NCBI GenBank assembly: GCA_964398685.1
Contig: CAYNNF010000005.1
Location: 1 to 62,526 of the forward strand
Direction of reading: 5' to 3'
Origin: an uncultured Candidatus Saccharibacteria bacterium
Lineage (GTDB): Bacteria > Patescibacteriota > Minisyncoccia > JBAYJV01
Length of the DNA stretch: 62,526 nt
This document shows positions 34,049 to 62,526 of the stretch, piece after piece. Numbering within the stretch: position 1 is the first letter of the stretch; each line of letters opens with the position of its first letter. The position numbers and the translations under genes are program-made. The notes beneath the pieces were generated by a model. It saw only the letters and a program-made list of their open reading frames with translations, made no database searches and was not told the DNA's origin.

Positions 34049-35428
34049 ATGCTCAATTTTATTAAAAAACACAAAATGTCTTCCTTAATATTTGGAGATA
34101 TTTTAATCCTCTATTTTTCTCTTTTTATCACCCTTTTCGTAAGACACCCAAGTGGCTTCACTTTTACGCTTTGGCGGCAGCATTTTTATCCTTTTAGTGT
34201 TATTTATATAATTTGGTTGTTCGTTTTTTACTTAAATGGACTCTACGATATTAATTTATATAAAGAATCGCTTAAATTTCTCAAAAAATTCTCGCAAGCA
34301 ATTTTAGTGAATCTTGCGTTTGCCGTAGGATTTTTTTATTTGTTCTCAGGCAACATTAGTCCCAAAAGAAATTTGTTTCTTACGCTTATCTTTTTTAGTA
34401 TTCTTTTCTATCTCTGGCGGCATATTTTTTATCTTTTTATCAAATCATCATTGCTTAAAACCAATATTGCTTTTGTCGGCATTAATCAAGAAGTTTTAGA
34501 AATTTTAGAACATCTTTCTAAAAATCCCCACCTGGGCTATAAAACAATTTTTCTTTTAACTGGAAAAAAAGAGAATTCTCTCTTAAAAAAAATTCCCGAG
34601 CAAATTAAAGTTTATCAAGGTTTTTCAAAACTAAATAACCTTTTGAAAGAATCTCTTCTTTCAAAAATAATAATCGCCATGAAGCCGGAAGATAATCCCG
34701 TGCTTGCCAAAGAACTTTACCATTCATCATCTAATATTGAATTTGTTTATTTTCCTAATTTTTATGAGGAAATAACTTCTAAAATTCCTCTGGAGATGAT
34801 TAATCGTTTCTGGCTTCAACAATCCCACGATGGAAAGGTGCATATTTTTTTCAAGCGAATCTCTGATATTGGTTTGGCTTGTATAGGAGGAATTTTATTG
34901 ATTGCGCTATTTCCTTTTTTACTGTCCGCTTATCTTTTAACGGACGGCTTTCCTATTTTCTTTGTCCAAGATCGTGTTGGCAAAAATGGAAAAAGATTTA
35001 AAATTTTAAAATTAAGAACAATGATAAAAACAGCCGAAAGAGAAAAACCCCTTTGGGCTGAAAAAAATGATATTCGCGTTACCCGGCTTGGCAAATTTTT
35101 AAGAAAGAGTTATGTTGATGAACTTCCCCAATTTGTTAATATTTTAAAAGGAGAGATGTCTGTTATCGGACCTCGTCCCGAACGGCCAGAATTTGTAAAA
35201 ACATTAGAAAAAGAAATTCCCTTTTATCCTTTGCGCCATATTATAAATCCAGGCGTTACGGGCTGGGCTCAGATTAATTCTTTTTATGCAAGGTCAATTG
35301 ATGACAGTGTGGAAAAAACCCGCTACGACCTCTTTTATGTAAAAAATCACTCTCTTCTTTTTGATATAAATATATTGTTGCAAACAATTAAAATGATCTT
35401 TTCAAAGAGAGCAAAGCAGAACTATTAA
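34049..35428 (+). CDS. Polyprenyl-phosphate glycosyl-1-phosphate transferase (WbaP/EpsL-type bacterial sugar transferase), priming enzyme
   Basis: N-terminal TM segments are followed by a C-terminal catalytic block: RVGKNGKRFKILKLRTM...DELPQFVNILKGEMSVIGPRPERPEF. Confidence 0.85.
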   Translation: MLNFIKKHKMSSLIFGDILILYFSLFITLFVRHPSGFTFTLWRQHFYPFSVIYIIWLFVFYLNGLYDINLYKESLKFLKKFSQAILVNLAFAVGFFYLFSGNISPKRNLFLTLIFFSILFYLWRHIFYLFIKSSLLKTNIAFVGINQEVLEILEHLSKNPHLGYKTIFLLTGKKENSLLKKIPEQIKVYQGFSKLNNLLKESLLSKIIIAMKPEDNPVLAKELYHSSSNIEFVYFPNFYEEITSKIPLEMINRFWLQQSHDGKVHIFFKRISDIGLACIGGILLIALFPFLLSAYLLTDGFPIFFVQDRVGKNGKRFKILKLRTMIKTAEREKPLWAEKNDIRVTRLGKFLRKSYVDELPQFVNILKGEMSVIGPRPERPEFVKTLEKEIPFYPLRHIINPGVTGWAQINSFYARSIDDSVEKTRYDLFYVKNHSLLFDINILLQTIKMIFSKRAKQNY

Positions 35429-35529
35429 AAATATTATATTGAGGTAGAATAAAAAGAATAATCCACATGTACTTGTGTGGATAAAAATATCTATTCTTAA
35501 TCGAAACTGCCATCCGAACACCGCCAAAT

Positions 35530-35550
35530 GCCCTGAACATAGGGCTTTTT
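35530..35550 (+). terminator. Weak terminator-like hairpin
   Basis: gccct-gaacat-agggc followed by ttttt. The stem is only 5 bp. Confidence 0.35.
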
Positions 35551-35634
35551 CTAAATTCAATAATAGGCGTTTGTTTAAATAAGTTAAATCTTTAAAATAA
35601 GTATAGGTGTTAAGTTTTAAGTTTTACGCATAAC

Positions 35635-36324
35635 ATGAAGGTTATTATATTAGCCGGTGGTCAAGGAACACGATTGCCAATATCTGCGAAAGGCATTCCT
35701 AAGCCACTCATAAAAATTAATAATAAAACTCTTTTGGATTATCAAATTAATCTTTTAGAGCGCAATGGTTTTTCAGATATTAGACTTAGCTTGGGTTATA
35801 TGGCCGACCAAATCATAGATCATATGAAGGAAAATTATCCTGGCAAATATGAATGGGTTATTGAAAAAGAAAAGCTCGGCACGGGTGGCGGCATTAAATT
35901 TGCTTCGCGCGATTTAAATGAAGATTTTTTGGCCCTTAATGTTGATGATTTTCCCAAAATAAACTTCAATGATTTCGTTAAATTTCACGAAGGACACGAT
36001 ATAGAAAACACTATCGCAATTTATGAAGTTGAGGATGCAAGAGATTTTGGCTTAGTAGAACATGCTAACGGTTTAATTAAAGATTTTTTAGAAAAGCCGA
36101 AAACAAAAAGATCCGGCCATATTAATACTGGATTTTATATTTTAAATCCCGGAATTTTTCAAGCTTTTCCAGATAAATATTTTTCAATAGAAAGAGATGT
36201 CTTTCCTGTTTTGGCCAAAAATAAAAAACTGGCCTGTTATCAAAACATCTCTCATTGGTTTACAACTGGCACAGAAGAAAGATTAAAACAGGCGAAGAAA
36301 TTTTTAAAAAACATATTTGATTAA
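35635..36324 (+). CDS. Sugar-1-phosphate nucleotidylyltransferase (GDP-mannose pyrophosphorylase-like)
   Basis: MKVIILAGGQGTRLPISAKGIPKPLIKI is the NTP_transferase G-loop; LGTGGG lies downstream. Confidence 0.75.
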   Translation: MKVIILAGGQGTRLPISAKGIPKPLIKINNKTLLDYQINLLERNGFSDIRLSLGYMADQIIDHMKENYPGKYEWVIEKEKLGTGGGIKFASRDLNEDFLALNVDDFPKINFNDFVKFHEGHDIENTIAIYEVEDARDFGLVEHANGLIKDFLEKPKTKRSGHINTGFYILNPGIFQAFPDKYFSIERDVFPVLAKNKKLACYQNISHWFTTGTEERLKQAKKFLKNIFD

Positions 36325-36329
36325 AAAAT

Positions 36330-37112
36330 ATGCAGAAATTTTTAAATATTAATCCAGAAAAAACATCACAAAAAATTATTAATTTTTTAAAAAAAGAGTT
36401 TAGCGAAAGACAAAAAAGGACGGCTATTCTCGCTATTTCTGGAGGAATTGATTCTGCTGTTTGCGCCTTTCTGTGCAAAGAAGCTGGTTTAAAACTTTAT
36501 GCAATTAATCTTCCCTACAAAAAACAAAGCATTAGCGACAGTTTATTAATTGAAAAATCTCTAAATCTACCCAAAAAACAAACTATAACTATTAATATAG
36601 GTAGTTCTGTTGATGCTCAAATAAAAAAACTGAAAGAACATATTAATATAGATGCGCTTGATAAAGGGAATATTATGGCAAGACAAAGAATGATTATTCA
36701 ATATGCCTTAGCAAAAAAATTAAATGGTCTTGTTGTCGGCACAGAAAACTTAAGCGAATACTATTTGGCGTATTTTACTCTTTATGGAGATCAGGCCTGC
36801 GACATTAGGCCTATTGCGAACTTATTTAAAACCCATATTTATCAGTTGGCAAAATATTTTAAAATACCTGAAAAAATAATTAAAAAAGCCCCTTCTGCCG
36901 ATCTTTGGAAAGAACAAACTGATGAAAAGGAATTGGGTTTCAGCTATAAAGAAGCTGATCCAATTATTTATTTTAAAATGATTAAAAAATTCACTAAAGA
37001 AAAAATATTAAAAAATAATAAATTCAACAAATCACTTGTAAATAAAGTTATTAAAAGGATTGACTCAACAGAATACAAACGAGAAAATCCTCCAAAATGT
37101 ATTTTTTGTTAA
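36330..37112 (+). CDS. nadE: NH3-dependent NAD+ synthetase
   Basis: It has the PP-loop ISGGIDSAV, GNIMARQRM, VVGTENLSEYYLAYFTLYGDQACDIRPI and KAPSADLW..QTDE, which are canonical NadE blocks. Confidence 0.75.
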   Translation: MQKFLNINPEKTSQKIINFLKKEFSERQKRTAILAISGGIDSAVCAFLCKEAGLKLYAINLPYKKQSISDSLLIEKSLNLPKKQTITINIGSSVDAQIKKLKEHINIDALDKGNIMARQRMIIQYALAKKLNGLVVGTENLSEYYLAYFTLYGDQACDIRPIANLFKTHIYQLAKYFKIPEKIIKKAPSADLWKEQTDEKELGFSYKEADPIIYFKMIKKFTKEKILKNNKFNKSLVNKVIKRIDSTEYKRENPPKCIFC

Positions 37113-37117
37113 CAATT

Positions 37118-38440
37118 ATGAAAACAAAACTAAAATTATCTGTCATCGGTCTTGGAAAATTAGGCATTTGCGCAGCCGTTTGCCCCGCGTATAAGGGATA
37201 TAAGGTGATTGGTCTTGATATTGATAAAAAAACAGTCGCGCTCGTTAATAAAGGAAAAGCGCCCGTGATTGAACCGGGACTTCAGGTCCTATTAAACAAG
37301 GCAAAAAAGAATTTACGCGCCACTCAAGATTCAGAAAAAATAATTAAAGAATCTAATGTCACTTTTTTAATTGTCCCAACGCCCTCAAAACCGGATGGGC
37401 ATTTTTCAGACAAGCTCCTTTTGAGCGCTTTAATCCCCTTGTCAAAGTCCTTAAGGCATAAAAATAGTTATCATCTTTTTGTGATTACATCAACTGTTTC
37501 ACCGGGAACAATTGAATCAAGTTTGATTCCCTTGATTGAAAAATATTCCGGCAAAATTTTGAATAAAGATTTTGGCATTTGTTATAATCCGGAATTTATC
37601 GCACTTGGAAGTGTTATTCATGACACCCTAAATCCTGATATGGTTTTAATCGGAGAGTCAAATAAAAAAGCGGGAGATATTTTAGAAAAATTTTATAAAA
37701 ATCTTTGCGACAATAAACCGTACATCGCAAGAATGTCTATTATATCCGCTGAAATTGCAAAGATTAGCTTGAATGCTTATATCACTATGAAAATTAGTTT
37801 TGCCAATACTCTGGGAAATCTTTGTGAAAGAATCTCTGGCGCAGAAGTTGATAAAATCAGCAAAGCTTTAGGCGCCGATAAAAGAATTGCGCCGTCTTAT
37901 CTCAGGGCAGGGTTAGCATACGGCGGTCCCTGTTTTCCGCGCGATGGTCGTGCTTTTACGGCTTTTGCCAAAAAATATTTTTATGATGCCAAACTCGTTA
38001 AAGCAACCGACGCAATTAATAAGTTGCAAATAGAATTGATTACTAAAAAAGTTCAAAATATTTTTAAAAATTCACACAGCAACACTGTTTCAATTTTAGG
38101 ACTTTCTTTTAAACCAGATACTCCTGTTATTGAAGAATCGGCCGCTATTTTTCTTATTAAGGAACTGCTTAAAAGTAAAGCCGAAATTACTGTTTATGAT
38201 CCGTTGGCAATAGAAAACACAAAACGAGTTTTTAAAAATAAAATTAAGTATGCTGATTCTCTCAAAAAATGCGTTGGGTCGTCTTTCATTGTTATAATAA
38301 CAACTCCAGATAAGAAATTTTATAAAATTAATAAAAACAATTTTACAAAAAAAACAATCGTTATTGATTGTTGGAGAATTTTAGAGAATAAATATTTAGG
38401 AGAAAATGTGACCTATGAAGCAATCGGAAAAAGCAAATAA
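37118..38440 (+). CDS. Nucleotide-sugar 6-dehydrogenase (UDP-glucose/GDP-mannose dehydrogenase family), canonical
   Basis: It has the Rossmann motif VIGLGKLG and the catalytic-Cys block AYGGPCFPRDG. The start is moved to MKTKLKL (37118), just after the nadE stop. Confidence 0.8.
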   Translation: MKTKLKLSVIGLGKLGICAAVCPAYKGYKVIGLDIDKKTVALVNKGKAPVIEPGLQVLLNKAKKNLRATQDSEKIIKESNVTFLIVPTPSKPDGHFSDKLLLSALIPLSKSLRHKNSYHLFVITSTVSPGTIESSLIPLIEKYSGKILNKDFGICYNPEFIALGSVIHDTLNPDMVLIGESNKKAGDILEKFYKNLCDNKPYIARMSIISAEIAKISLNAYITMKISFANTLGNLCERISGAEVDKISKALGADKRIAPSYLRAGLAYGGPCFPRDGRAFTAFAKKYFYDAKLVKATDAINKLQIELITKKVQNIFKNSHSNTVSILGLSFKPDTPVIEESAAIFLIKELLKSKAEITVYDPLAIENTKRVFKNKIKYADSLKKCVGSSFIVIITTPDKKFYKINKNNFTKKTIVIDCWRILENKYLGENVTYEAIGKSK

Positions 38441-39245
38441 AATAAACAGGGTAAAACAATATTGGAATGACCGCCCTTGCAATGTTCGTCATTCGCAAAG
38501 CAAATTTGGCACAAAAAAATATTTTGAAGAAGTTGAAAAAAGAAAATATTTTGTTGAACCCCATATCCCTGCGTTTGCTCAATTTAAAAAATGGAAAGGA
38601 AAAAAGGTTTTAGAGCTCGGTTGTGGTATCGGGACCGACTCAATTAATTTTGCAAAAGCAGGAGCTGAATTAACCGTTGTTGAGCTGTCTAAAAAAAGCC
38701 TTGAAATTACTCGCAGAAGATTTAAAACTTACAACCTCAAGGCGAAATTCTTTGAAGGAAATATTGAAGAGCTAAGTGAGTTTTTGCCAAAAGAAAAATA
38801 TGATTTGATTTATTCATTTGGTGTTATTCACCACACGCCAAATCCAGAAAAAGTTTTTGAAGAAATTAAAAAATATTGTAAGCCAGAAACAGAATTAAGA
38901 ATTATGCTTTACTCAAAGTGGTGTTGGAAAGTGTTTTGGATTATTATGGGCTATGGCAAGGGAAAATTTTGGAAGATAAAAAAACTCGTCCCCCAATATT
39001 CGGAAGCCCAAACTGGATCGCCGGTAACATATATTTATTCTAAAAAAGAAATTTATCGCCTAATGAAAGATTTTGATATCGTCAAAATATATAAAGACCA
39101 TATTTTCCCCTATGTGATTGATGATTATAAAAAATACCGTTATAAAAAAGTTTGGTATTTCAGATACTTGCCGCATTTTTCCTTTAGATGGCTTGAAAAA
39201 AAATTGGGCTGGCACACTTTAATTGTGGCAAAGCCAAAAAGATAA
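38415..39245 (+). CDS. Class I SAM-dependent methyltransferase
   Basis: Motif I is VLELGCGIGTDSINFAKAG, and the post-I/II spacing is typical. Confidence 0.8.
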   Translation: MKQSEKANKINRVKQYWNDRPCNVRHSQSKFGTKKYFEEVEKRKYFVEPHIPAFAQFKKWKGKKVLELGCGIGTDSINFAKAGAELTVVELSKKSLEITRRRFKTYNLKAKFFEGNIEELSEFLPKEKYDLIYSFGVIHHTPNPEKVFEEIKKYCKPETELRIMLYSKWCWKVFWIIMGYGKGKFWKIKKLVPQYSEAQTGSPVTYIYSKKEIYRLMKDFDIVKIYKDHIFPYVIDDYKKYRYKKVWYFRYLPHFSFRWLEKKLGWHTLIVAKPKR

Positions 39246-40471
39246 TGAAAATCTTCTTTATACAACCAACGGGCGACAAAATGGGCCATTATGGCATCTA
39301 CACTACTCATGTCTGCCAAGAAATAGCTAAACAGGGCGCCGACATAACCCTTTTTACCAATAAAATTTACCCGGAAAAATACATTGAAGAAAAACCTCTT
39401 TTTAATATTGTTGAATTTAAAAATGGCAAATATGGTTTTGAAAAATTTGACCGTCTTAAAAAGAAATTGCCTTTTTTGTATTTATATGCTTACTTAAGAA
39501 ATTCTTTTGTGGCTATTCGTGAGGCGATTAAGTATTTGAAAAAAAATGATTTTGATATTGTTTTTGTGATGGATACAGAATACGGAATTCTCTCCTTGCT
39601 CCTTAAATTATTTGGCAGAAAAATACCGCCGTTAATTTTAATGGTTCAAGCGGCTAATTTTTCCTTTAAAAAGTTTGCGGGAAATTTTCTTTTTAAAACT
39701 TATAAGGTTCTTCAAAAACAAATTTTAAAGAGCGCTGTTAAAAAAAGAATTAAAGCATTTTTAGTTTTAGGAGAGTTTCATAAAGAAGAATTAAAAAAAC
39801 AACTTAAGTTAAAAAATGATTTTCCAATTAGAGTCGTATATGACGGCGCTGATCCGCCAAAAGAATTTCTGGACAAGATTAGCGCTCGAAAAAAAATAAA
39901 TATAAAATGCGATGGACCGCTTTTTCTCTTTTTCGGGATGCTTAGAAAAGATAAGGGCATTGAATATCTTTTAAAAGCTGTTTCTCTGTTGAAAAACGAA
40001 AATTTTAAACTGGTTATTGCCGGCTCTTTGTTTGAATACAGTGAGGATGAAATCAAAAAACTAATCAAAAAATTAAATATAGAAGAAAAAATTATTCTTC
40101 GGCTTGGGTATGTGGAAGATAAAAATGTTCCTCTCTATTTTTTCTCAAGTGATGCCGCAGTTTTTCCTTATAGAAAAATCTATACCGGTGGAAGCGGACC
40201 CTTGTTAAAAGAAGCGGCGATTTATAAAACACCGGTTATAGCAAGCGATGTGTCCGAAATGGGCAGATTGGTTAAAAAACATAAAATGGGTTTAGTAACG
40301 GAGCCGGAAAATCCAGAAGATTTGGCAAATAATATGAAAAAGTTTTTATCTATGAATAACCAAGAAAAAAAAGAGCTCTCAGACAATGTGGCAAAAGCGG
40401 CAAACACTTGGGAAAAAATAGGAAAAGAATATTTAGCTTTCTTTAAAGAAATTATCAATGAAAAGAATTAG
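39245..40471 (+). CDS. Glycosyltransferase, GT4-like (GT-B fold)
   Basis: The 408-aa length, the C-terminal ...GGSGPLLKEAAIYKTPVIASDV... and the E-x7-E-like region are typical of Glycos_transf_1. Confidence 0.7.
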   Translation: MKIFFIQPTGDKMGHYGIYTTHVCQEIAKQGADITLFTNKIYPEKYIEEKPLFNIVEFKNGKYGFEKFDRLKKKLPFLYLYAYLRNSFVAIREAIKYLKKNDFDIVFVMDTEYGILSLLLKLFGRKIPPLILMVQAANFSFKKFAGNFLFKTYKVLQKQILKSAVKKRIKAFLVLGEFHKEELKKQLKLKNDFPIRVVYDGADPPKEFLDKISARKKINIKCDGPLFLFFGMLRKDKGIEYLLKAVSLLKNENFKLVIAGSLFEYSEDEIKKLIKKLNIEEKIILRLGYVEDKNVPLYFFSSDAAVFPYRKIYTGGSGPLLKEAAIYKTPVIASDVSEMGRLVKKHKMGLVTEPENPEDLANNMKKFLSMNNQEKKELSDNVAKAANTWEKIGKEYLAFFKEIINEKN

Positions 40472-41909: not shown

Positions 41910-41918
41910 CTTTAAAAA

Positions 41919-45386: not shown

Positions 45387-45478
45387 ATAATAAATTCATT
45401 TTAAACTTAAAAGACAAGGGAATAACTTGCGACCTTCTTTTATCCGGTATTCGCGAACCCTTCTCAACTAAAACAGTT

Positions 45479-54749: not shown

Positions 54750-54752
54750 AAT

Positions 54753-55463
54753 ATGAAAGCTATTTTACTCGCCGCAGGTAAAAGCGCTAGGTTGGGAAAA
54801 ATTACCAAAAATATTCCCAAACCAATGCTTAAGATTAAAAATGAAATTGTTTTAGCGCACAATATTGAATGGCTTAAAAAATACAATATAAAAGATATTT
54901 ACATTAATCTTCATTACCTTCCAGATATTATTAAAAGCTATTTTGGAGATGGCAGTAAATGGAAAGTTAAAATTAATTATTCTTATGAGAAAAATATTCT
55001 TGGAACCGCAGGTGGTGTAAAAAAAATTATTAATATTTATGAAAAAGATAATTGGAAAGAAGATTTTTTAGTGGTCTATGGCGACAGTTTTTACCCCTTT
55101 AGTTATAACATAGATAAATTGATTGATTTTCAAAAAGAGAAAAACGCGTTAGTATCAATGGGATTATACAAAAGGAAAAGCGAGATTTGGAAAAGTGGCG
55201 TGGCTCTCATTGCAGATAATGGACGAATTAAAAAATTTGTTGAAAAGCCCGATCCAAAAAAGATTAATAGCAATTTGGTTAATACAGGAATATACATTGT
55301 CCACCCTAAGATAGTTAAATATATTCCCGATGGATTTTCTGATTTTGCTCAAGATATTTTTCCAAAATTGTTAAGAGAAAAATTACCAATTTATGGCTAT
55401 GTTTTTGGCGAAGGATTAATCCCTATTGATACGCCAAAATTACTTAAAAAAGCTAATAGATAA
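54753..55463 (+). CDS. hddC: Sugar-1-phosphate nucleotidylyltransferase, probable D-glycero-alpha-D-manno-heptose-1-phosphate guanylyltransferase
   Basis: It has the NTP_transferase G-loop AILLAAGKSARLGKITKNIPKPML. The specific assignment rests on adjacency to hddA and on gmhA/gmhB in the same block. Confidence 0.6.
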   Translation: MKAILLAAGKSARLGKITKNIPKPMLKIKNEIVLAHNIEWLKKYNIKDIYINLHYLPDIIKSYFGDGSKWKVKINYSYEKNILGTAGGVKKIINIYEKDNWKEDFLVVYGDSFYPFSYNIDKLIDFQKEKNALVSMGLYKRKSEIWKSGVALIADNGRIKKFVEKPDPKKINSNLVNTGIYIVHPKIVKYIPDGFSDFAQDIFPKLLREKLPIYGYVFGEGLIPIDTPKLLKKANR

Positions 55464-55467
55464 AATT

Positions 55468-56469
55468 ATGATTATCACTCGAACACCGTTTAGAATTACT
55501 CTGGGAGGAGGAGGCACAGATTTGCCAGCATATTATTCAAAATACGGCGGTTTTATTTTTGCCGCAGGGATTGATAAATATATGTTTATTGTCCTTAATC
55601 GTTCTGCCGTTGATGATTTAGTAAGATTAAAATACAGCCAATCAGAAACAGTAAATTATTGTAGCGAGTTAAAGCATGAAATTGCTCGCGAAGCGCTAAA
55701 GATGATGAACATTGAGAATGGAATAGAGATATCCTCGCTAGCAGATATACCCGCGGGAACAGGACTCGGCTCATCAAGCTGTTACGCTGTGGGACTTTTA
55801 AACGCGCTGCACGCCTTTAAAAAAAGCAAAATTACCCCCGGGCAGCTCGCTGAAAAAGCCTGTAATCTTGAGATTGACATTCTAAAAAAACCCATCGGCA
55901 AGCAAGATCAATATATGGCAACTTTCAGTGGTCTGACAGTTTTAGATATCAATAAGGATGGCAGGGTTAAGGTAAGACACGCGGATATTTCTGGAGAAAC
56001 AATAAATAGCTTGAATCGCAATATGTTAATGTTCTATACAAACACTTCAAGAGACGCTAATATAATTCTTTCTGAACAAAGCAATGGAGCAAAACAACAG
56101 AAAAAAAATGTTATAGAGAATATGCACTATATTAAAGAAATTGGCTATCAAATTTTGGACGCTACAGAAAGTGGAAACATTACCGATATCGGACTTTTAT
56201 TTGATAAACATTGGCAACATAAGAAAAAAATCTCAACAAAAATGTCTAATCCTAGGTTTAATAAAATTTATGATATTGCTAAAGAAAATGGCGCTTTGGG
56301 AGGAAAAATTTCTGGCGCTGGCGGAGGCGGTTTCTTTGTGTTTTATATAGAGAAAAAACACAAAAAATTCATAGACACGATGGAAAAATTGGGATTACGA
56401 GAAATGAAATACAGTTTTGATTTTGAAGGCACAAGAGTATTGGCTAATTTTGGAGATATTGCAAAATAA
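55468..56469 (+). CDS. hddA: GHMP kinase, probable D-glycero-alpha-D-manno-heptose-7-phosphate kinase
   Basis: MIITRTPFRITLGGGGTDLPAYY and the GHMP motif IPAGTGLGSSS, with C-terminal GKISGAGGGGFF. The start is placed after the upstream stop. Confidence 0.7.
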   Translation: MIITRTPFRITLGGGGTDLPAYYSKYGGFIFAAGIDKYMFIVLNRSAVDDLVRLKYSQSETVNYCSELKHEIAREALKMMNIENGIEISSLADIPAGTGLGSSSCYAVGLLNALHAFKKSKITPGQLAEKACNLEIDILKKPIGKQDQYMATFSGLTVLDINKDGRVKVRHADISGETINSLNRNMLMFYTNTSRDANIILSEQSNGAKQQKKNVIENMHYIKEIGYQILDATESGNITDIGLLFDKHWQHKKKISTKMSNPRFNKIYDIAKENGALGGKISGAGGGGFFVFYIEKKHKKFIDTMEKLGLREMKYSFDFEGTRVLANFGDIAK

Positions 56470-56473
56470 ATAT

Positions 56474-57793
56474 ATGGCAACTCATCAAAAAAAAATTGGA
56501 ATAATTGGTCTTTGGCATCTTGGCTGTGTTGCCGCTTCTTCTCTTGCTGATATTGGACATAATGTTATCGGCGTAGATTTTGATCAAAAAATATTAAAAG
56601 GCCTAAAGGACGGAAAAGCGCCCATTCAAGAACCAGGACTACAGGACTTACTTGATAAAAATATCAGAAAGGGCACTCTTGTTTTTACAAGCTCTTTCCA
56701 GCAAGCGCTAAGTAATGCCGATTTTATATTAATAACCTTTGACACTCCGGTAGACAATAATGACAGATTGAACTTATCGCTCATTTATAGAGCATGTGAT
56801 TCAATCGCTAAATACGCGCCTAAGAAATTCACATTAGTGATTATGAGCCAAATCCCTGTCGGCACCTCAAGAGAACTGAAAAAAATTATTTTAAACAAAA
56901 ATAAGAATTTATCTTTTGACATTATTTATAGTCCTGAAAATCTCAGACTGGGTGAGGCATTAAAAATATTTAATAATTCAGAAAGAATTATTGTTGGCTT
57001 AGAAAAACACAGCACAAAACAAAAAGCAGAAAAATTATTTTCTTTTACAGAAGCTCCTAAAATATATATGGACTTAGAAAGCGCCGAAATGACAAAACAC
57101 GCCATCAATGCTTATTTGGCTAGTTCTATCAGTTTTGTCAACGAGCTGGCAAGTTTGTCTGAAGTTTTAAATGCCGACATAGGAAAGGTAGTGGAAGGGA
57201 TGAAAAGCGATAGCCGAATTGGAAGGCATGCTTTTCTAAATCCAGGGCTAGGCTTCGCCGGAGGAACATTAGGTCGAGATATTCAAGTTTTGAGAAGTTT
57301 TGGAAAAAAATTCGGAATTAAAACTGAGTTTATAAATGCTGTATTAAAAATTAACAGGAATAGAAAAAAAATGTTGTTTAAAAAGATTGACGATATCTTT
57401 CCTTCTCTTAATGGACTAAACATTGGCTTACTTGGACTTACTTATAAGGCAGGAACCGATACTTTGAGACGGTCTGTGTCTCTGGAAGTAGCAAAAAAAA
57501 TGATTAGCAAGAACGCTCATGTTAGCGCCTTTGATCCAATGATTAATGAAAAAATTGATGTGATTAAAAAATTAACTATTGCAAAAGATCCATACGAGAT
57601 TGCCATGGATGCAGACTTATTAGTGTTAATGACAGATTGGCCAGAGTTTAAAAATCTGGATTTTGCCAAAATTAAAAAAATAATGAAAAAACCAATTATT
57701 ATTGATATGAGAAATTTTCTAAACGCCGAGGTGCTTAAAAAATTATCTTTTGATTATTACGGTGTCGGTATAAAAAATATTAATATAAAATAA
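56474..57793 (+). CDS. UDP-glucose/GDP-mannose dehydrogenase-family protein with altered catalytic and Rossmann motifs
   Basis: The family fold is clear (KAPIQEPGLQDLL, three-domain length). However, the catalytic block reads NPGLGFAGGTLGRD, with Thr where the conserved Cys sits in GxGGxCxxKD. The first Gly-rich loop reads GLWHLG instead of GxGxxG. Confidence 0.7.
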   Translation: MATHQKKIGIIGLWHLGCVAASSLADIGHNVIGVDFDQKILKGLKDGKAPIQEPGLQDLLDKNIRKGTLVFTSSFQQALSNADFILITFDTPVDNNDRLNLSLIYRACDSIAKYAPKKFTLVIMSQIPVGTSRELKKIILNKNKNLSFDIIYSPENLRLGEALKIFNNSERIIVGLEKHSTKQKAEKLFSFTEAPKIYMDLESAEMTKHAINAYLASSISFVNELASLSEVLNADIGKVVEGMKSDSRIGRHAFLNPGLGFAGGTLGRDIQVLRSFGKKFGIKTEFINAVLKINRNRKKMLFKKIDDIFPSLNGLNIGLLGLTYKAGTDTLRRSVSLEVAKKMISKNAHVSAFDPMINEKIDVIKKLTIAKDPYEIAMDADLLVLMTDWPEFKNLDFAKIKKIMKKPIIIDMRNFLNAEVLKKLSFDYYGVGIKNINIK

Positions 57794-57839
57794 GAACCCC
57801 CCGGTGAACCTTGATACTTATCTTTAATAAAATAAATTT

Positions 57840-58703
57840 ATGACTTTACTCAAAAATAATTCTACGAATTTAAAGAATAAAATAGCCGTTATTACGGGGG
57901 GCACAGGAGGAATCGGAAGTGTTATCGCATCCCTTTTCGCCGAGGAAAGCGCAAAAGTAATAATTCTTGATATTAATCAAAAGAAAATTAATGCTTTAGT
58001 CAAGGAAATAGGAAGAAAATCTATCGGTATAAAAGCAGATGTTCGTAATCTTGCTCAAATAAAAAAAGCCGTAAATGGAATTACCAAAAAATTCAAAAAA
58101 ATTGACATTTTAATAAACGCTGCAGGCGTCTATGGACCAATCGGTCTTTTAGTTGACAGCGATTTGGATAATTGGTTTAATAATATTAAAATCAATTTGT
58201 TAGGAACCGTTAATTTTTGCAAAGCTGTCTTGCCCCTAATGATTAAGAATAGAGGCGGTAGAATTGTCAATTTTTCAGGCGGTGGCGCAACATTTTCCAG
58301 GCCGCATTTTTCCGCTTATGCAGTTTCTAAAACCGCTGTTGTAAAATTTACTGAAACCTTAGCCGATGAAGTAAAAAAATATAACATTTATGTTAACTCT
58401 ATCGCCCCGGGAGCAATCAATACAAATATGTTAAAAGAAGTTTTACAAGATAGAAAGGGCGCGGGTAAAGAAGAATTTGAAAAAGCCCAAGAGAGACAAA
58501 AAACCGGTGGTACGCCAGTTGAGTTAGTTGCTGAATTGGTATTATTTTTGGCCTCAGAAAAATCACACAATCTCACGGGCAAACTTATAAGCGCTCCTTG
58601 GGATAATTGGAAAAAATGGAATAAAAAAGATATAAATCAAATTAATAAAACCGCAAAATACACATTGAAAAGGATAGATAATAAGTATTTTAAAGAAATT
58701 TAA
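57840..58703 (+). CDS. Short-chain dehydrogenase/reductase (classical SDR)
   Basis: It has VITGGTGGIGS (TGxxxGxG), NAAG and YAVSK (YxxxK). Confidence 0.8.
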   Translation: MTLLKNNSTNLKNKIAVITGGTGGIGSVIASLFAEESAKVIILDINQKKINALVKEIGRKSIGIKADVRNLAQIKKAVNGITKKFKKIDILINAAGVYGPIGLLVDSDLDNWFNNIKINLLGTVNFCKAVLPLMIKNRGGRIVNFSGGGATFSRPHFSAYAVSKTAVVKFTETLADEVKKYNIYVNSIAPGAINTNMLKEVLQDRKGAGKEEFEKAQERQKTGGTPVELVAELVLFLASEKSHNLTGKLISAPWDNWKKWNKKDINQINKTAKYTLKRIDNKYFKEI

Positions 58704-58706
58704 AAC

Positions 58707-59702
58707 ATGAATATAGGAATAATTGGAGCCGGCCTAATTGGCAACAAACGCGCTCAATCTATCAAAGAAATTGACAAAGATATAATTGTTGCTATTGCTG
58801 ATACTGATAAAAGCAAGGTGTTAGAGTTTTCAAAAAAATATAACTGCCAAGGACTGGACAAATGGCAGAAAATGGTTAGAATAAACAATATTGACGCCAT
58901 TGTTATTGCTGTTCCTAATAAGTTTGTCGCGCCTATGGCAATTGCAGCTCTAAAACAAAGAAAACATATTCTTTGCGAAAAACCATTCGGTCGAAATTCA
59001 AAAGAATCTCGGAAGATTTTAGAAACAGCTAAAAGATTTCAACGACTTGTAAAGGTTGGTTTTAATCATAGATTTCATCCAGCCATATTGAAAGCAAAAA
59101 AAATATTAGAAGCAGATGGTATTGGTAAAATTATTTTTATCAGAGGTCGTTATGGCCACGGAGGAAGATTGGGAATGGAAAAAGAATGGCGGACGAACAA
59201 AGATATTTCTGGAGGAGGCGAATTATTAGATCAGGGCGTACACATAATTGATCTTTGTCGATATTTCGGTGGAGAATTTAAGGAAGTTTTTGGTACTGTT
59301 GGAACTAAGTTCTGGAAAATAAACGTTGAAGATAATGCTTTTGTAATAATGAAGAATGCTCGGATTACAGTTCAATTTCAAACCAGTTGGACAAATTGGA
59401 AAAATATTTTCTCTCTTGAAATTTATGGCACCGATGGATTTTTGCAAATTGAAGGATTAGGCGGAAGCTATGGAAAAGAGAAATTAATTTTTGGTAAAAG
59501 AAAAAAAGAGTTCGGTGTTCCAATTATCAAAGAATATCTTTTTGAACAAGATATTAGTTGGCAAGAAGAATGGAAAAATTTTCGCAACGCTATTCTCAAT
59601 AAAGAAGAAATGAATGGAGATGGTACTGATGGATTAATAGCTAATCAAATTGTAGAAGCAATCTATAAGTCAAGTAAAACTAAAAAAAATATCCGACTAT
59701 GA
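58707..59702 (+). CDS. Gfo/Idh/MocA-family oxidoreductase
   Basis: MNIGIIGAGLIGNKR is the Rossmann motif and ILCEKP the conserved EKP motif. The length is typical of the family. Confidence 0.8.
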   Translation: MNIGIIGAGLIGNKRAQSIKEIDKDIIVAIADTDKSKVLEFSKKYNCQGLDKWQKMVRINNIDAIVIAVPNKFVAPMAIAALKQRKHILCEKPFGRNSKESRKILETAKRFQRLVKVGFNHRFHPAILKAKKILEADGIGKIIFIRGRYGHGGRLGMEKEWRTNKDISGGGELLDQGVHIIDLCRYFGGEFKEVFGTVGTKFWKINVEDNAFVIMKNARITVQFQTSWTNWKNIFSLEIYGTDGFLQIEGLGGSYGKEKLIFGKRKKEFGVPIIKEYLFEQDISWQEEWKNFRNAILNKEEMNGDGTDGLIANQIVEAIYKSSKTKKNIRL

Positions 59703-60223
59703 AAAAACAAAGAGCTCTTTTTATAGATAGGGATGGCATACTTAATCACACAGTTCGTCGTGATGGAAAATGTGTTTCTCCAAGAACATTTAAAGAATTT
59801 CGACTCAAAGAGGGGATTAAAGAATTTACCCAAGAAATAAAAAAAAAGTTTTTAATAATTGTCGTAACTAATCAGCCAGATATTGCCCGCGGATTCATGA
59901 AGACAGAAGATCTGGACAAAATGCATCATCTCTTATTGAAAGATTGTCTTGTTGATAAAATCTTCGTTTGCCCTCATGATGATAAAGATAATTGTTCCTG
60001 CCGCAAGCCAAAGGCGGGAATGTTGATAGAAGCTGCAGAGAAATGGCAAATTGATTTAAAAAAATCATTCATCGTAGGAGATTCTTGGAAAGATATCGGG
60101 GCTGGAAAAAATGCTGGATGCAAGACTATCCTTTGGCAAACAGATTATAACCAAGATACTATTGCAGATTTTTATGTAACTTCTTTTAGAGAAATTTTGA
60201 AAATTATTAAAACCAATGATTGA
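59699..60223 (+). CDS. gmhB: D,D-heptose 1,7-bisphosphate phosphatase (HAD-IIIA)
   Basis: It has LFIDRDGILN (DxD nucleophile motif), VVTNQPDIARG, the Zn-site Cys pattern CPHDDKDNCSCRKP and GDSWKDIGAG. Confidence 0.8.
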   Translation: MKKQRALFIDRDGILNHTVRRDGKCVSPRTFKEFRLKEGIKEFTQEIKKKFLIIVVTNQPDIARGFMKTEDLDKMHHLLLKDCLVDKIFVCPHDDKDNCSCRKPKAGMLIEAAEKWQIDLKKSFIVGDSWKDIGAGKNAGCKTILWQTDYNQDTIADFYVTSFREILKIIKTND

Positions 60224-60238
60224 ACATAAAAAAATACT

Positions 60239-60958
60239 ATGACAAAAAAAAATACCGATTTTAAAATTAAAATCTTTGCTGATGGCGCGGATAAATCTAG
60301 TATAATGGAACTTTCAAAAAAACGGTGGATTAGTGGCTTCACCACTAATCCAACTTTAATGAGAAAAGCTGGAGTAAAAAATTATAAAAAGTTTGCGAAA
60401 GAAATATTGAGCATCGTAAAGAAAAAACCAATTTCTTTTGAAGTCTTTTCTGATAATTTTGAAGAGATGGAACGCCAGGCTCAACTCATTAATTCTTGGG
60501 GTAAAAATGTATATATTAAAATTCCTATCACTAATACAAAAGGAGATTCGGCTTTTTTTCTTGTAAAAAAATTGTCTCAAGATGGTATTAAGGTAAATGT
60601 TACTGCCATCTTCACCTTAGAACAAATAAGGCATATCCTTAAAGCATTGTCTTTCGGAACGCCTGCTGTTATTTCAGTTTTTGCTGGTCGTATTGCTGAC
60701 ACAGGAAAAGACCCTATGCCTATTATGAAACAGGCATCAAAGATGCTCTCTAAATATCCAGAGATTGAACTTCTTTGGGCAAGCCCACGAGAGTTATTAA
60801 ATATTTTTCAAGCTGAGTCAGTGGGTTGTGATATTATTACAGTTCAACCAGATATCCTTAAAAAAATTAATACTATTGGAAAAAATCTTGAAGCTTTTTC
60901 TTTGGATACGGTAAAAATGTTTTGTGAAGATGCTAAGGCTGCTGGTTACAAGCTTTGA
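60239..60958 (+). CDS. tal: Transaldolase-family protein (short, Fsa/TalC-like)
   Basis: KIFADGADKSSIMEL...ISGFTTNPTLMRKAG and VYIKIPIT are blocks of the short transaldolase/fructose-6-P aldolase subfamily. Confidence 0.75.
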   Translation: MTKKNTDFKIKIFADGADKSSIMELSKKRWISGFTTNPTLMRKAGVKNYKKFAKEILSIVKKKPISFEVFSDNFEEMERQAQLINSWGKNVYIKIPITNTKGDSAFFLVKKLSQDGIKVNVTAIFTLEQIRHILKALSFGTPAVISVFAGRIADTGKDPMPIMKQASKMLSKYPEIELLWASPRELLNIFQAESVGCDIITVQPDILKKINTIGKNLEAFSLDTVKMFCEDAKAAGYKL

Positions 60959-61028
60959 ACTTAACGGGAGATTATTACGAACCTTTCGCTACGCTCAAGA
61001 ACCTTGATAGAAAAATTATAAACAAAAA

Positions 61029-61604
61029 ATGAATTATAAAATTCAAAAAAATTATATTAATAAGTATTTAAAGGAGGTAAAAATTCTCCTTGAGATTATT
61101 GATCGTGAAGAAATCCTTGCGGTTTTAAAAATACTAATCAAGCTAAAAGCAAAAAATGGTCGTCTCTTTGTTTTGGGGATTGGTGGTTCTGCGGCCAATG
61201 CTTCTCATGCTGTTAATGATTTTCGCAAGATTTGCAATATTGAAACTTACGCCCCGACAGATAATGTTGCTGAATTGACTGCTTGGACCAATGATAACGG
61301 TTTTGAATATATTTTTATTAAATGGCTTCATGGTTCTCGTCTTAATAAAAACGATGCCCTACTAATATTGTCTGTGGGCGGAGGAAGTAATACTACTTCT
61401 AGGAATTTAGTTTTGGCAATGCGCTATGCTAAAAAAGTAGACGCTAAGATTTTGGGCATTGTCAGTCGAGATGGTGGCCAAACAAGAAAACTATCCGATG
61501 CTTGTGTTTTAATCCCTCCGATTACGCCAGAACGCATTACGCCCCACGCCGAAGAGTGGCAAAGTATTATTCTTCACTTGATTGCAAACGCTTTGATTTT
61601 ATAG
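61029..61604 (+). CDS. gmhA: SIS-domain sedoheptulose-7-phosphate isomerase
   Basis: GRLFVLGIGGSAANASHAVNDF, ALLILSVGGGS and a C-terminal HAEEWQ-type block are typical GmhA features. Confidence 0.75.
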   Translation: MNYKIQKNYINKYLKEVKILLEIIDREEILAVLKILIKLKAKNGRLFVLGIGGSAANASHAVNDFRKICNIETYAPTDNVAELTAWTNDNGFEYIFIKWLHGSRLNKNDALLILSVGGGSNTTSRNLVLAMRYAKKVDAKILGIVSRDGGQTRKLSDACVLIPPITPERITPHAEEWQSIILHLIANALIL

Positions 61605-61636
61605 TCGTGTTGTATTTGTGTATTTTATTTTAATTT

Positions 61637-62526
61637 ATGTCCAAACAAAAAAAAATTTTAGTTACAGGTGCTGGCGGTTTTATCGGCCATCACCTGGTTC
61701 GTTTTTTAAAAAAGAAAGGATATTGGGTTAGAGGAGCCGATATCAAATACCCTGAATTTAGTCCAAAAAATGAAGCAGATGAGTTTTTGAAAGTTGACCT
61801 TCGTGATCCAAAAAATTGCTTAAAGGCAACAAAAGGAATTGACGAGGTCTATAACTTAGCCGCTAATATGGGAGGAATAGGTTTTATTACATTTCATACT
61901 TCTGATGTTTTGCACGATAATGTTTTAATTAATACCAATATGGCAGAAGCGTGCAAACAAAATAAAGTTAAGAAAATCTTTTACTCATCTTCCGCTTGTA
62001 TTTATCCAATCGCTAAACAAAAAAATCCTAAAGTAATTGCTTTGAAAGAATCAGATGCTTATCCCGGAGATCCTGACAATGAATATGGTTGGGAAAAGCT
62101 ATTTTCAGAACGGCTTTATACCTCATATAAAGAGTTTTATAAAGTGAGAATTGCTCGCTTTCATAACATCTTTGGTGAAGAAGGAACTTATGAAGGAGGA
62201 AGAGAAAAAGCGCCAGCTGCAATTTGTCGTAAGGTTGCTTTAGCTAAAGATAGTGGAACGCTTGAAATATGGGGAGATGGGAAACAAACAAGGTCATTTT
62301 GCTATATTAATGATTGTTTGGAAGCAATTTATAGTCTGATGAAATCTAGTCATGATCAGCCAATTAATATTGGTTCAGATAGATTGGTAACCATTAATCA
62401 GCTCGTAGATATTGTCTCTAAGGTTTCTGGCAAAAAATTTAAAAAGAAACATCTTCTCAATAAACCTCAGGGAGTTAGGGGCAGAAATTCAGACAATACC
62501 TTGTTTAAAAAACAATTTGGCTGGGC
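61637..62526 (+). CDS. GDP-mannose 3,5-epimerase-like extended SDR (3' end outside window)
   Basis: It has KILVTGAGGFIGHHL. The block YEGGREKAPAAICRKVA...EIWGDGKQTRSF closely resembles the GGREKAPAAFCRK region of GDP-mannose 3,5-epimerases. There is no stop before the window end. Confidence 0.65.
   Translation, partial: MSKQKKILVTGAGGFIGHHLVRFLKKKGYWVRGADIKYPEFSPKNEADEFLKVDLRDPKNCLKATKGIDEVYNLAANMGGIGFITFHTSDVLHDNVLINTNMAEACKQNKVKKIFYSSSACIYPIAKQKNPKVIALKESDAYPGDPDNEYGWEKLFSERLYTSYKEFYKVRIARFHNIFGEEGTYEGGREKAPAAICRKVALAKDSGTLEIWGDGKQTRSFCYINDCLEAIYSLMKSSHDQPINIGSDRLVTINQLVDIVSKVSGKKFKKKHLLNKPQGVRGRNSDNTLFKKQFGW

Follow-up and report, generated by a model that had tools for sequence, protein, structure and literature searches.

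A locus of about 33 kb predicted to encode a Wzx/Wzy-type heteroglycan assembly system in a Parcubacteria bacterium

Gene content and extent of the locus

The stretch of DNA analyzed here (contig CAYNNF010000005.1, positions 1 to 62,526; hereafter the window, which means the whole 62,526-nt stretch) carries a glycan locus of approximately 33 kb that extends from position 29877 to about 62593. Our analysis suggests that this locus likely encodes a Wzx/Wzy-type system for the assembly of a polyprenyl-phosphate-linked heteroglycan in an uncultured, ultra-small Parcubacteria bacterium of the Candidate Phyla Radiation (CPR). The open reading frame (ORF) listing and the Pfam and NCBIfam scans of each gene show that 29 plus-strand genes follow one another between 34049 and the window end at 62526, preceded by a block of minus-strand genes. 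All 29, bar an embedded nadE, have a role in sugar pathways. They comprise one priming transferase, two nucleotidyl (NTP) transferases, two dehydrogenases of the UDP-glucose dehydrogenase (UGDH) family, Wzx, six glycosyltransferases (GTs) and four methyltransferases; one radical SAM/SPASM enzyme, Gmd, Fcl, three further extended short-chain dehydrogenases/reductases (SDRs), one classical SDR and one Gfo/Idh/MocA oxidoreductase; and a GHMP kinase, a HAD-IIIA phosphatase, a SIS isomerase and a transaldolase. The same scans found no aminotransferase and no acetyltransferase among the locus genes. Pfam scanning covered the 29 plus-strand locus genes and 30 other larger ORFs, and three short ORFs beside secA (90-136 aa) were scanned with NCBIfam only.

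A single-strand glycan locus with every one of these gene classes except nadE had been described in an earlier sequence-only reading of the window, and the domain scans recovered all of them, including the six GTs, the four methyltransferases and the radical SAM/SPASM enzyme. Some details of that reading need to be revised. It counted 28 genes, having omitted nadE (36330-37112), and it placed the start of the locus at 34049, whereas two minus-strand Wzy_C genes directly upstream (29877-33960) also belong to it. Together with Wzx, this pair would supply polymerase- and ligase-type functions missing from the plus-strand run, so that the functional locus starts at 29877. The short gaps or overlaps that had been noted between genes do hold at most junctions, which are separated or overlapped by a few bases; the exceptions are the gaps of 135-268 bp after genes 1, 7 and 10. 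Apparent overlaps of -38 and -53 nt are due to TTG starts, the ATG starts in the public contig being 55468 and 56474. The sole terminator-like hairpin within a gap lies at 35530-35545, after the priming transferase gene, and Rfam and tRNA scans found nothing within the locus.

The window belongs to the JGI metagenome contig Ga0265594_1000089 (the source contig, L001), to which its tail is identical over 12288 nt, with 0 mismatches. In this contig the last locus gene ends 67 nt beyond the window end, and the earlier statement that the locus continues past the window is therefore correct for these final 67 nt only. Downstream of this gene in L001 are an AAA_14/DUF4143 ATPase and then minus-strand genes. 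The ATPase (L001:12486-13742) is missing in a second sample, whose contig (L002) is nearly the same in other respects; the difference is a strain-level insertion or deletion at the locus boundary.

Priming, flipping and polymerization genes

The genes for lipid-linked assembly lie on both sides of the divergent junction:

29877..32063 (-), Wzy_C-TPR membrane protein, 728 aa (PF04932 76.6 bits, cut-off 31.7; TPR at residues ~520-720)
32074..33960 (-), second Wzy_C membrane protein, 628 aa (PF04932 68.2 bits)
34049..35428 (+), priming transferase of the polyprenyl-phosphate hexose-1-phosphate type, large WbaP/WcaJ (TIGR03025 347.8 bits, cut-off 295.55; PF02397 E = 1.1e-59)
40458..41909 (+), Wzx-type flippase of the MOP superfamily (PF01943 128.5 bits, cut-off 28.2; PF13440; ~12+ hydrophobic segments)

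The priming transferase, which contains five hydrophobic segments, and Wzx had both been named in the sequence-only reading, and both score above the cut-offs of their models. An 88-bp gap separates the start of the 628-aa Wzy_C gene from the divergent priming transferase gene. With respect to a polymerase, the locus has two adjacent polytopic PF04932 proteins, and this family also includes ligases and O-oligosaccharyltransferases (O-OTases). The two proteins are paralogues with 30% identity across their whole length. The 628-aa protein is a candidate repeat-unit polymerase. The 728-aa protein, which has about 11 hydrophobic segments, is a candidate ligase, O-OTase or polymerase; it aligns end to end with the Wzy_C-TPR neighbour of the priming transferase in a complete Nealsonbacteria genome, and its Wzy_C membrane domain followed by a carboxy-terminal TPR matches the architecture reported for the O-OTases WsfB and PglL (PMC2943079).

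GDP-fucose and GDP-L-galactose/gulose branches

Two of the predicted sugar donor branches start from GDP-mannose and are encoded by three genes:

47906..49003 (+), Gmd (gene 14; TIGR01472 580 bits, cut-off 415)
48960..49928 (+), GDP-L-fucose synthase of the Fcl/GMER family (gene 15; top 18 PDB matches all GDP-fucose synthases, best E = 6.8e-63)
61637..62526, window part (+), GME, a GDP-mannose 3,5-epimerase, last locus gene (318-aa L001 protein against Arabidopsis GME 2c59: E = 3.7e-96, 325 bits, full length)

The assignment of Gmd is secure. Fcl, whose true start is probably about 15 codons downstream, keeps the Cys of the GxxCxYP motif, the Tyr and Lys of YxxxK and the His of SSHV in an alignment to 8du0, with Ser107 replaced by Thr. 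The gmd-fcl pathway proposed earlier is thus upheld, with Gmd above its equivalog cut-off and Fcl closest to GDP-fucose synthases with its catalytic residues retained.

The last gene had been counted as one of three more extended SDRs; all three are present, and this one is a GME that was not recognized as such. Eight residues distinguish GME from GalE and GMER, namely S143/Y174/K178, the acid-base pair C145/K217, R306, R243 and N203, and a single bacterial GME had been characterized according to a 2022 review (PMC8787198). In the alignment to 2c59, all eight (S143, C145, Y174, K178, N203, K217, R243 and R306) are kept. By these residues and full-length similarity the gene is assigned as a GME, which adds GDP-L-galactose/L-gulose to the predicted donor set. 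Its homologues are abundant: there are 8000+ matches, and the best 120 are 65-88% identical and come from metagenomes, including Staskawicz- and Nealsonbacteria metagenome-assembled genomes (MAGs). In the complete Nealsonbacteria genome, GME adjoins ManC, which suggests GDP-mannose as the likely substrate rather than GDP-heptose. A specificity for GDP-heptose was considered and is unsupported, since the homologues are very common, occur beside ManC and are found without heptose genes in one other locus (L088).

A probable GDP-heptose branch

Upstream of GME is a block of genes that resembles the route to GDP-heptose:

54753..55463 (+), sugar-1-phosphate nucleotidylyltransferase 2, HddC candidate (gene 21; PF00483 117.5 bits; HddC model 91.5 bits, cut-off 300)
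55468..56469 (+), GHMP kinase of the D-glycero-D-manno-heptose 7-phosphate kinase (HddA) type (gene 22; best PDB matches WcbL, 4usm/4usk, 3k85 and 4n3o)
57840..58703 (+), classical SDR (PF00106 181.7 bits)
58707..59702 (+), Gfo/Idh/MocA oxidoreductase (PF01408, PF22725)
59699..60223 (+), HAD-IIIA phosphatase of the GmhB type (gene 26; TIGR01656 130 bits, cut-off 84; TIGR01662)
60239..60958 (+), transaldolase of the short Staphylococcus type (TIGR02134 333 bits, cut-off 282)
61029..61604 (+), SIS-domain isomerase of the GmhA (sedoheptulose-7-phosphate isomerase) type (gene 28; 13 best PDB matches all phosphoheptose isomerases, best 1tk9 E = 7.6e-13)

Genes 21, 22, 26 and 28 are co-located within 7 kb, and the block also occurs in a related locus (L086) on the CPR contig Ga0272441_10000001, including the HddC candidate directly upstream of the heptose kinase. 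The kinase matches WcbL, 3k85 and 4n3o (a putative HddA) at E ~1e-38 to 1e-40, as opposed to 1e-18 for fucokinase. The sequence-only reading had proposed gmhA/hddA/gmhB/hddC plus a transaldolase. The best matches are indeed heptose enzymes, the PDB agrees for the isomerase and the kinase, and the transaldolase passes its cut-off; the other four, however, stay below theirs, with 54 bits for the isomerase (TIGR00441, cut-off 209), 167 for the kinase (NF049969, cut-off 600), 118 and 115 for the phosphatase on GmhB-specific models (cut-offs 178 and 250) and 92 of 300 for the HddC candidate. A GDP-heptose route is therefore probable, not proven.

GHMP-family kinases belong to the GDP-heptose route, and PfkB-type HldE to the ADP route. 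The presence of a GHMP kinase and an NTP_transferase-type enzyme, together with the finding of no PfkB kinase in domain scans of the locus, points to the GDP rather than the ADP route; the heptose anomer and nucleotide themselves are not readable from sequence. The transaldolase gene is placed between the phosphatase and isomerase genes, and transketolase, Rpe and RpiB are encoded at 13-18 kb of the window, which suggests that the supply of sedoheptulose-7-phosphate, which the transaldolase would provide or balance, is encoded locally. The classical SDR and the Gfo/Idh/MocA oxidoreductase (best NCBIfam matches IolG and UDP-GlcNAc 3-dehydrogenase, both under cut-off) are embedded in the block at the same position here and in L086, suggesting a role in heptose tailoring.

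Uronic acid genes and an embedded nadE

The remaining nucleotide-sugar genes are distributed along the plus-strand run:

35635..36324 (+), sugar-1-phosphate nucleotidylyltransferase 1, Man-1-P or Glc-1-P type (PF00483 102 bits)
36330..37112 (+), nadE, NH3-dependent NAD+ synthetase (NF010587 261.7 bits, cut-off 255)
37097..38440 (+), nucleotide-sugar 6-dehydrogenase 1, UDP-glucose dehydrogenase type (TIGR03026 347 bits, cut-off 190; all three UDPG_MGDP_dh domains)
46943..47869 (+), GalE-like extended SDR 1, UDP-hexose/UDP-hexuronate 4-epimerase type (best PDB match 4zrm, UDP-glucose 4-epimerase, E = 3e-68)
53817..54749 (+), GalE-like extended SDR 2 (best PDB match 4zrm, E = 1.6e-55; UDP-GlcNAc and UDP-GlcA 4-epimerases also matched)
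56474..57793 (+), nucleotide-sugar 6-dehydrogenase 2, UGDH2 (TIGR03026 370 bits, cut-off 190; absent from L086)

The first nucleotidylyltransferase matches Man-1-P guanylyltransferase (112 bits) and AglF (93 bits) in NCBIfam, all under cut-off, and GalE-like SDR 1 likewise falls under the GalE and RmlB equivalog cut-offs.

The best PDB match of the nadE product is NadE from P. horikoshii (E = 9.5e-47, ~45% identity), and its SGGIDS PP-loop aligns to 2e18. A NadE gene is directly followed by a UGDH gene in six independent contigs (the window, L083/L090, L091, L093, L094 and L095; L083 and L090, like L086, are loci on Ga0272441_10000001), and NadE, methyltransferase and UGDH form a trio in another order in L088. 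NadE is most likely a genuine NAD+ synthetase, to judge from its similarity, that travels with the NAD-dependent UGDH. NadE enzymes adenylate and then amidate a carboxylate, a chemistry that would also fit an ATP-dependent amidotransferase converting the UGDH product, or a glycan-bound hexuronate, to a uronamide, in which case the methyltransferase encoded next to it would act on that residue too. The repeated adjacency to UGDH and the trio are in line with such a function, which is nevertheless quite unlikely because the protein passes the NAD+ synthetase cut-off, is close to the P. horikoshii enzyme and has a canonical PP-loop, and because equally close homologues occur in non-glycan settings, beside a 2-hydroxyacid dehydrogenase and a histidine kinase (L092, L097) or YcaO (L098).

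Glycosyltransferases, methyltransferases and a radical SAM enzyme

The genes for glycan extension and modification include:

38415..39245 (+), class I SAM methyltransferase (PF13649, PF08241 and related, E ~1e-17 to 1e-19)
39245..40471 (+), GT4 a (PF00534 100.9 bits; PF13439)
42045..43118 (+), radical SAM enzyme with SPASM/twitch carboxy-terminal domain (PF04055, PF13186; CxxxCxxC at residues 42-49; carboxy-terminal cysteines)
43118..44197 (+), GT4 b, radical SAM partner (PF00534 105 bits)
44194..45210 (+), glycosyltransferase, Glyco_trans_1_2, CgeB-like (PF13524 88.3 bits)
45479..46186 (+), FkbM methyltransferase 1 (TIGR01444 101 bits, cut-off 37.7)
46190..46879 (+), TylF-type methyltransferase of the macrocin O-methyltransferase family (PF05711 76.2 bits, cut-off 23)
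49921..50796 (+), GT2 a, rhamnosyltransferase-like, candidate 6-deoxyhexosyltransferase (PF00535; TIGR01556 154 bits, under the 200 cut-off)
50873..51757 (+), FkbM methyltransferase 2 (TIGR01444 100 bits, cut-off 37.7)
51767..52753 (+), GT2 b (PF00535 136.8 bits)
52743..53774 (+), GT2 c (PF00535, PF13641, PF13632; two carboxy-terminal hydrophobic segments, residues 249-286)

The class I methyltransferase accompanies nadE and UGDH in both L083 and L088. Upstream of FkbM1, in the 268-bp gap at 45211-45478, 36 codons before the ATG are homologous to the longer L083 orthologue; this segment contains no start codon, and there are stops further upstream. FkbM1 thus appears to be truncated at its 5' end relative to the L083 orthologue, with the methyltransferase domain intact.

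The radical SAM enzyme belongs to a family of ~355-aa proteins with 222 matches. A Foldseek search with its AF2 model (pLDDT 92.6) found the SPASM peptide maturases SkfB, SuiB and anSME; the best TM score was to BlsE, and BtrN, DesII and viperin were found as well. BlsE acts on cytosylglucuronic acid and, like BtrN, DesII and viperin, is a radical SAM enzyme of sugars, nucleoside sugars or nucleotides. The substrate is probably a sugar or nucleotide sugar. All seven contexts examined for this family (the window, L083-L085 and L106-L108), which come from several lineages, are glycan loci, and in five of the seven a GT4 gene of ~345-380 aa adjoins the radical SAM gene; in L108 one gene lies between the two, and in L107 the closest GT4 is fused to a GT2 and separated from it by two small ORFs. 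The homologues of GT4b beside the radical SAM gene in L083, L084 and L085 are 29-61% identical to it, and the neighbouring GT4 genes of L106, L107 and L108 have the same Pfam domain set. From this recurrent pairing we infer that the radical SAM enzyme modifies a sugar donor or intermediate for its partner GT4. The pair in L084, a Dehalococcoidia-labelled contig, lies in a glycan locus (noted at L084:16640-17041) beside an AglB/STT3-type oligosaccharyltransferase, so that this module is not tied to Wzy_C-type transfer.

Host lineage and conservation in relatives

The window encodes a SecA (22071-24863, minus strand) whose identity is 90% to the SecA of one CPR MAG, to which the submitter gave the label Candidatus Saccharibacteria, and 74% to that of a MAG of Candidatus Paceibacterota. 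It is 51-60% identical to those of dozens of MAGs that bear labels of Parcubacteria-group lineages (Ryan-, Giovannoni-, Yanofsky-, Azambacteria and others), of Patescibacteria or, once more, of Saccharibacteria. Since most matches after the first two are to MAGs with Parcubacteria or Patescibacteria labels, SecA similarity places the host in the Parcubacteria/Paceibacteria radiation of the CPR. The CPR-like host that the sequence-only reading had raised as a condition is thereby borne out.

We also compared the window proteins, using tblastn, with 80 SecA-anchored CPR loci, 50 of which have at least 6 kb of upstream flank. A priming transferase and/or Wzy_C gene is found upstream in 21 of these 50, frequently accompanied by a GalE-like SDR, a secreted 588-aa protein and HPF. 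Divergent pairs of priming transferase and Wzy_C genes with gaps of 55-90 bp occur in L026, L027, L033 and L053, and again in the complete Nealsonbacteria genome, where the order is GME-ManC, priming transferase, Wzy_C-TPR, MurB, HPF and, further on, SecA.

The most extensive similarity is to Ga0272441_10000001, a CPR contig of 768,753 bp. It shares the two Wzy_C genes with a divergent priming transferase, and the first ten plus-strand genes are collinear (priming transferase, nucleotidylyltransferase, NadE, UGDH, methyltransferase, GT4, Wzx, radical SAM, GT4 and GT), at 51-78% identity including the Wzy_C genes. It also has the heptose block ending in GME (90% identity). The 3' part, in contrast, has similar content in a rearranged order: UGDH2 is missing, and there is a second gene each for a GHMP kinase and a SIS isomerase, along with an additional GT and a terminal Wzz-like gene after GME. 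The transaldolase (199 aa) and the GME-adjacent SIS isomerase (131 aa plus a 63-aa ORF) of this contig are shorter (L086:8763-9977), the second pair of GHMP kinase and SIS isomerase being upstream; this may reflect pathway replacement or decay. The comparison gives the picture of a conserved anchor joined to an evolving cassette of modular make-up, similar to what is seen in O-antigen and capsule loci.

Proposed pathway

The sequences show the gene content and family membership of the locus, the residues that Gmd, Fcl and GME keep in their active sites, the lineage of the host and the synteny in relatives. In the proposed pathway, GDP-mannose would be converted to GDP-L-fucose by Gmd and Fcl, and to GDP-L-galactose or GDP-L-gulose by GME. 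Sedoheptulose-7-phosphate, formed by the transaldolase together with the pentose-phosphate enzymes of the window, would be converted to GDP-D-glycero-alpha-D-manno-heptose by the GmhA-, HddA-, GmhB- and HddC-like enzymes, and the classical SDR and Gfo/Idh/MocA oxidoreductase may tailor the heptose further. The two UGDH enzymes would provide UDP-hexuronic acids, with the GalE-like 4-epimerases acting on UDP-sugars. The priming transferase would load hexose-1-phosphate onto the lipid carrier and the six GTs would extend it to a lipid-linked repeat unit that holds about seven sugars at most, to be methylated by the four methyltransferases and further modified by the radical SAM enzyme and GT4b.

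Given a single priming transferase, a single Wzx, six GTs and a pair of Wzy_C proteins, the simplest model is to build the unit, to flip and polymerize it, and to transfer the product. Wzx would flip the unit, one Wzy_C paralogue would polymerize it, and the Wzy_C-TPR paralogue would transfer the polymer to its final acceptor, most likely a surface or S-layer protein and otherwise a wall or lipid anchor. The sugar identities of the heptose branch, the roles of the two Wzy_C proteins, the acceptor and all of the tailoring steps are what we infer from enzyme families and gene order. Surface-type proteins flank the locus, namely a protein with Lamin Tail Domains (LTD) and PKD upstream and, downstream in L001, a Big_2/fn3 protein and a 29% Ser/Thr protein. 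These neighbours and the WsfB/PglL-like architecture tip the balance slightly towards protein O-glycosylation as the final step; a polysaccharide that is free or linked to the wall is almost equally likely, and a lipopolysaccharide (LPS) O-antigen is very unlikely.

Alternative explanations

Several observations weigh against the proposed system as outlined. The roles of polymerase, ligase and O-OTase are not separable by the Wzy_C sequences alone, and the protein acceptor is putative, with secreted LTD/PKD, Big_2/fn3 and Ser/Thr-rich proteins flanking the locus. The four heptose enzymes, all below NCBIfam equivalog cut-offs, could have other substrates. Fcl also scores under its NCBIfam cut-off (NF047922, 280 bits against 500), which makes GDP-L-fucose the likely product and a related 6-deoxyhexose a possible one. 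Promoter and terminator scans gave counts at the level of shuffled sequence, and operon structure is not established. No domain of a chain-length regulator (Wzz), which is common but not universal in such clusters, was detected in the scanned genes, and tblastn with the Wzz-like protein of L086 was negative in the window, L001 and L002. Finally, the 75-kb contig region examined contains no LCP ligase, PCP/tyrosine kinase or export genes. This last result also counts against a locus for a capsule or exopolysaccharide, wall-linked or free, without protein glycosylation. In such a locus each of the Wzy_C proteins would act as a polymerase, for instance on two repeat units, and the product would either be released or be joined to peptidoglycan or a lipid by an enzyme whose gene lies elsewhere. 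Wzy_C proteins polymerize in many monoderm polysaccharide pathways, one example being TuaE, which is assigned to the teichuronic acid pathway; the teichuronic acid proteins TuaB/C/D/G are among the NCBIfam matches of several locus proteins, and the Wzz-like co-polymerase of the related locus points to polymerization. Such a polymer is possible, if somewhat unlikely, as the conserved paralogue carries a carboxy-terminal TPR of the kind reported for O-OTases rather than polymerases (PMC2943079).

The resemblance of the gene content to O-antigen clusters, and the fact that Wzy_C is the Pfam family of WaaL, might also suggest that one Wzy_C protein is a WaaL that ligates an O-antigen to lipid A-core in a diderm cell, and CPR surveys sometimes label such genes as LPS biosynthesis. 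The same literature, however, describes CPR cells as monoderm with an S-layer (PMC6146748), and in a CPR host, such as this Parcubacteria bacterium, Wzy_C does not by itself imply LPS. The sequence-only reading had noted that lipid A, Kdo and core genes are missing from the window; in agreement, domain scans found no lpx, kds or waa gene in the 62.5-kb window, nor is there any among the genes called in the ~10 kb of the source contig that follow. PDB sequence searches gave no match of the Wzy_C proteins to solved WaaL at E <= 1, the Wzy_C-TPR protein having TPR matches only, and an LPS locus is thus extremely improbable. The locus could instead be a composite of at least two independent glycan pathways placed head to tail, with a conserved 5' module from the priming transferase to the GT at 44194-45210 and a variable 3' module for fucose, heptose and L-galactose. 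The collinearity of the first ten genes with the relative, the rearrangements, gains and losses in the 3' part, and the 268-bp gap with the degraded FkbM1 5' end between the two parts would fit such a division. A composite is nonetheless rather doubtful because a single priming transferase and a single Wzx serve the whole 33 kb, and the 3' part has GTs without a flippase or initiator of its own. One Wzx/Wzy-type assembly system remains the likely reading of the locus as a whole.

Comparison with known systems

The S-layer glycan (slg) loci of Paenibacillus alvei, Geobacillus stearothermophilus and Aneurinibacillus thermoaerophilus share with the CPR locus a monoderm S-layer host, a WbaP-type priming transferase, nucleotide-sugar genes, several GTs and O-methylation. 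The S-layer heptose of A. thermoaerophilus is made via the GDP route. The slg loci also have a Wzy_C-family O-OTase, with a carboxy-terminal TPR in WsfB, and a heptose-containing S-layer glycan is known in A. thermoaerophilus (listed among the references of PMC2943079). In contrast to the CPR locus, they are smaller and lack GME, radical SAM, transaldolase and a second Wzy_C, and G. stearothermophilus has an ABC transporter instead of Wzx. The likeness is architectural only, as no S-layer protein or glycosylation site has been identified in the CPR locus.

Wzx/Wzy O-antigen and capsule clusters, such as those for colanic acid in E. coli (gmd-fcl, WcaJ, Wzx) and those of C. jejuni and B. pseudomallei (HddA/WcbL, GmhA, HddC), have the same enzyme families and lipid-linked logic: Gmd is an equivalog, the GHMP kinase is nearest to WcbL and 4n3o, and the SIS isomerase is nearest to 1tk9. 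The CPR locus differs in that its host presumably lacks an outer membrane and LPS, in that there are no Wza/Wzc or Kps export genes, and in that its Wzy_C proteins have long carboxy-terminal helical/TPR domains. The combination with GME, nadE, transaldolase and radical SAM was not seen among the characterized clusters compared. Genes 2, 4 and 5 also recall the AglF/AglM/AglP module of Haloferax volcanii, being an NTP transferase with a match to AglF, a UGDH with AglM as second-best match, and a methyltransferase of class I. In Haloferax, AglF is a UDP-glucose pyrophosphorylase and AglM a UDP-glucose dehydrogenase, and AglP converts a hexuronic acid to its methyl ester. These matches, however, are far under the cut-offs (93/400 and 313/670 bits), the likeness of gene 5 to AglP is by class, and the Haloferax glycan is N-linked via AglB. 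The last gene resembles the GMEs of plants and Methylacidiphilum fumariolicum in its full-length similarity (325 bits) and eight diagnostic residues, and differs from them in that it ends a heptose block.

Other features of the window

The rest of the window is housekeeping in nature, with tRNAs, S2, EF-Ts, L31, a release factor, L25, FBA, GAPDH, HPF and SecA. The release factor gene (5489-6226, plus strand) encodes only 245 aa; its PCRF match begins at profile position 100, and the amino-terminal domain is apparently missing. The ORF for ribosomal protein L31 lies upstream with a 4-nt overlap. Amid these housekeeping genes of a small genome are an AbiEii-type toxin nucleotidyltransferase (11631-12335, minus strand) and a Fic-domain protein (20630-21841, minus strand). 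GC skew is below zero over 1-34 kb and above zero from 34 to 62 kb, the cumulative minimum lying at ~34-36 kb and the sign change at the divergent junction. There is no dnaA and no evident space for an origin in the 88-bp gap at this switch, which coincides with the switch of coding strand and thus probably reflects coding-strand composition.

The LTD/PKD protein (27709-29556, minus strand; 615 aa) has two Lamin Tail Domains and a PKD, an amino-terminal signal-like segment and a carboxy-terminal hydrophobic anchor. It sits between the Wzy_C genes and the conserved 588-aa protein, and is 76% identical in the closest relative, L003. Three secreted proteins on the flanks of the glycan locus (19175-20479 and 25881-27647, both on the minus strand, and L001:14957-17053, minus strand) have in common a carboxy-terminal repeat of ~55 aa in one to three tandem copies, with the motif roughly KVYE..G.K.W....AF...YDW..I..N. 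An HMM of this repeat finds 19 ORFs in 17 sources, including the conserved 588-aa protein beside SecA in many Parcubacteria, and the repeat, possibly a module for anchoring to the wall or a glycan, matches no Pfam family at E <= 10.

Implications for CPR surface glycans

The pathway type is ordinary, and both it and every enzyme family involved are already known. The sequence-only reading had called such a glycan in a CPR-like host essentially uncharacterized biology. In agreement with this, no chemically characterized CPR surface glycan was found in the literature searched; nucleotide-sugar and heptose pathways, on the other hand, are already on record from surveys of Paceibacteria genomes (PMC9166423). 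O-antigen sugar genes have also been reported on CPR phages (PMC12911398). Four features go beyond the descriptions found: the way in which three GDP-sugar branches are combined, a GME recognized as such, the conserved anchor of priming transferase and Wzy_C-TPR beside hpf-secA, and the radical SAM-GT4 module.

CPR bacteria are believed to spend their lives attached to other cells. Speculatively, the divergent pair of priming transferase and Wzy_C-TPR near hpf-secA could be a Parcubacteria-wide platform for surface glycosylation (protein O-glycosylation or a wall glycopolymer), into which lineage-specific cassettes are plugged. Here, the cassette would make a methylated glycan of L-fucose, L-galactose/gulose, heptose and uronic acid, with a new radical SAM-dependent modification introduced via a dedicated GT4, and attachment to host cells and recognition by phages would depend mainly on this glycan in these episymbionts. 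We regard this full picture as unlikely in its entirety; if true, the glycan might be read by the ~55-aa carboxy-terminal repeats of the neighbouring secreted proteins.

The locus provides a concrete parts list for a CPR surface glycan: three GDP-sugar branches, uronic acids, four methyltransferases, and a radical SAM enzyme with its partner GT. The anchor beside hpf-secA can be used to find and compare equivalent loci in other Parcubacteria, and the abundant, highly conserved bacterial GME and the radical SAM-GT4 pair are candidates for biochemical study. Thus, the 'LPS/O-antigen' and 'ADP-heptose' labels in CPR surveys may be better read as monoderm surface-glycan pathways that use the GDP-heptose (GHMP kinase) route.

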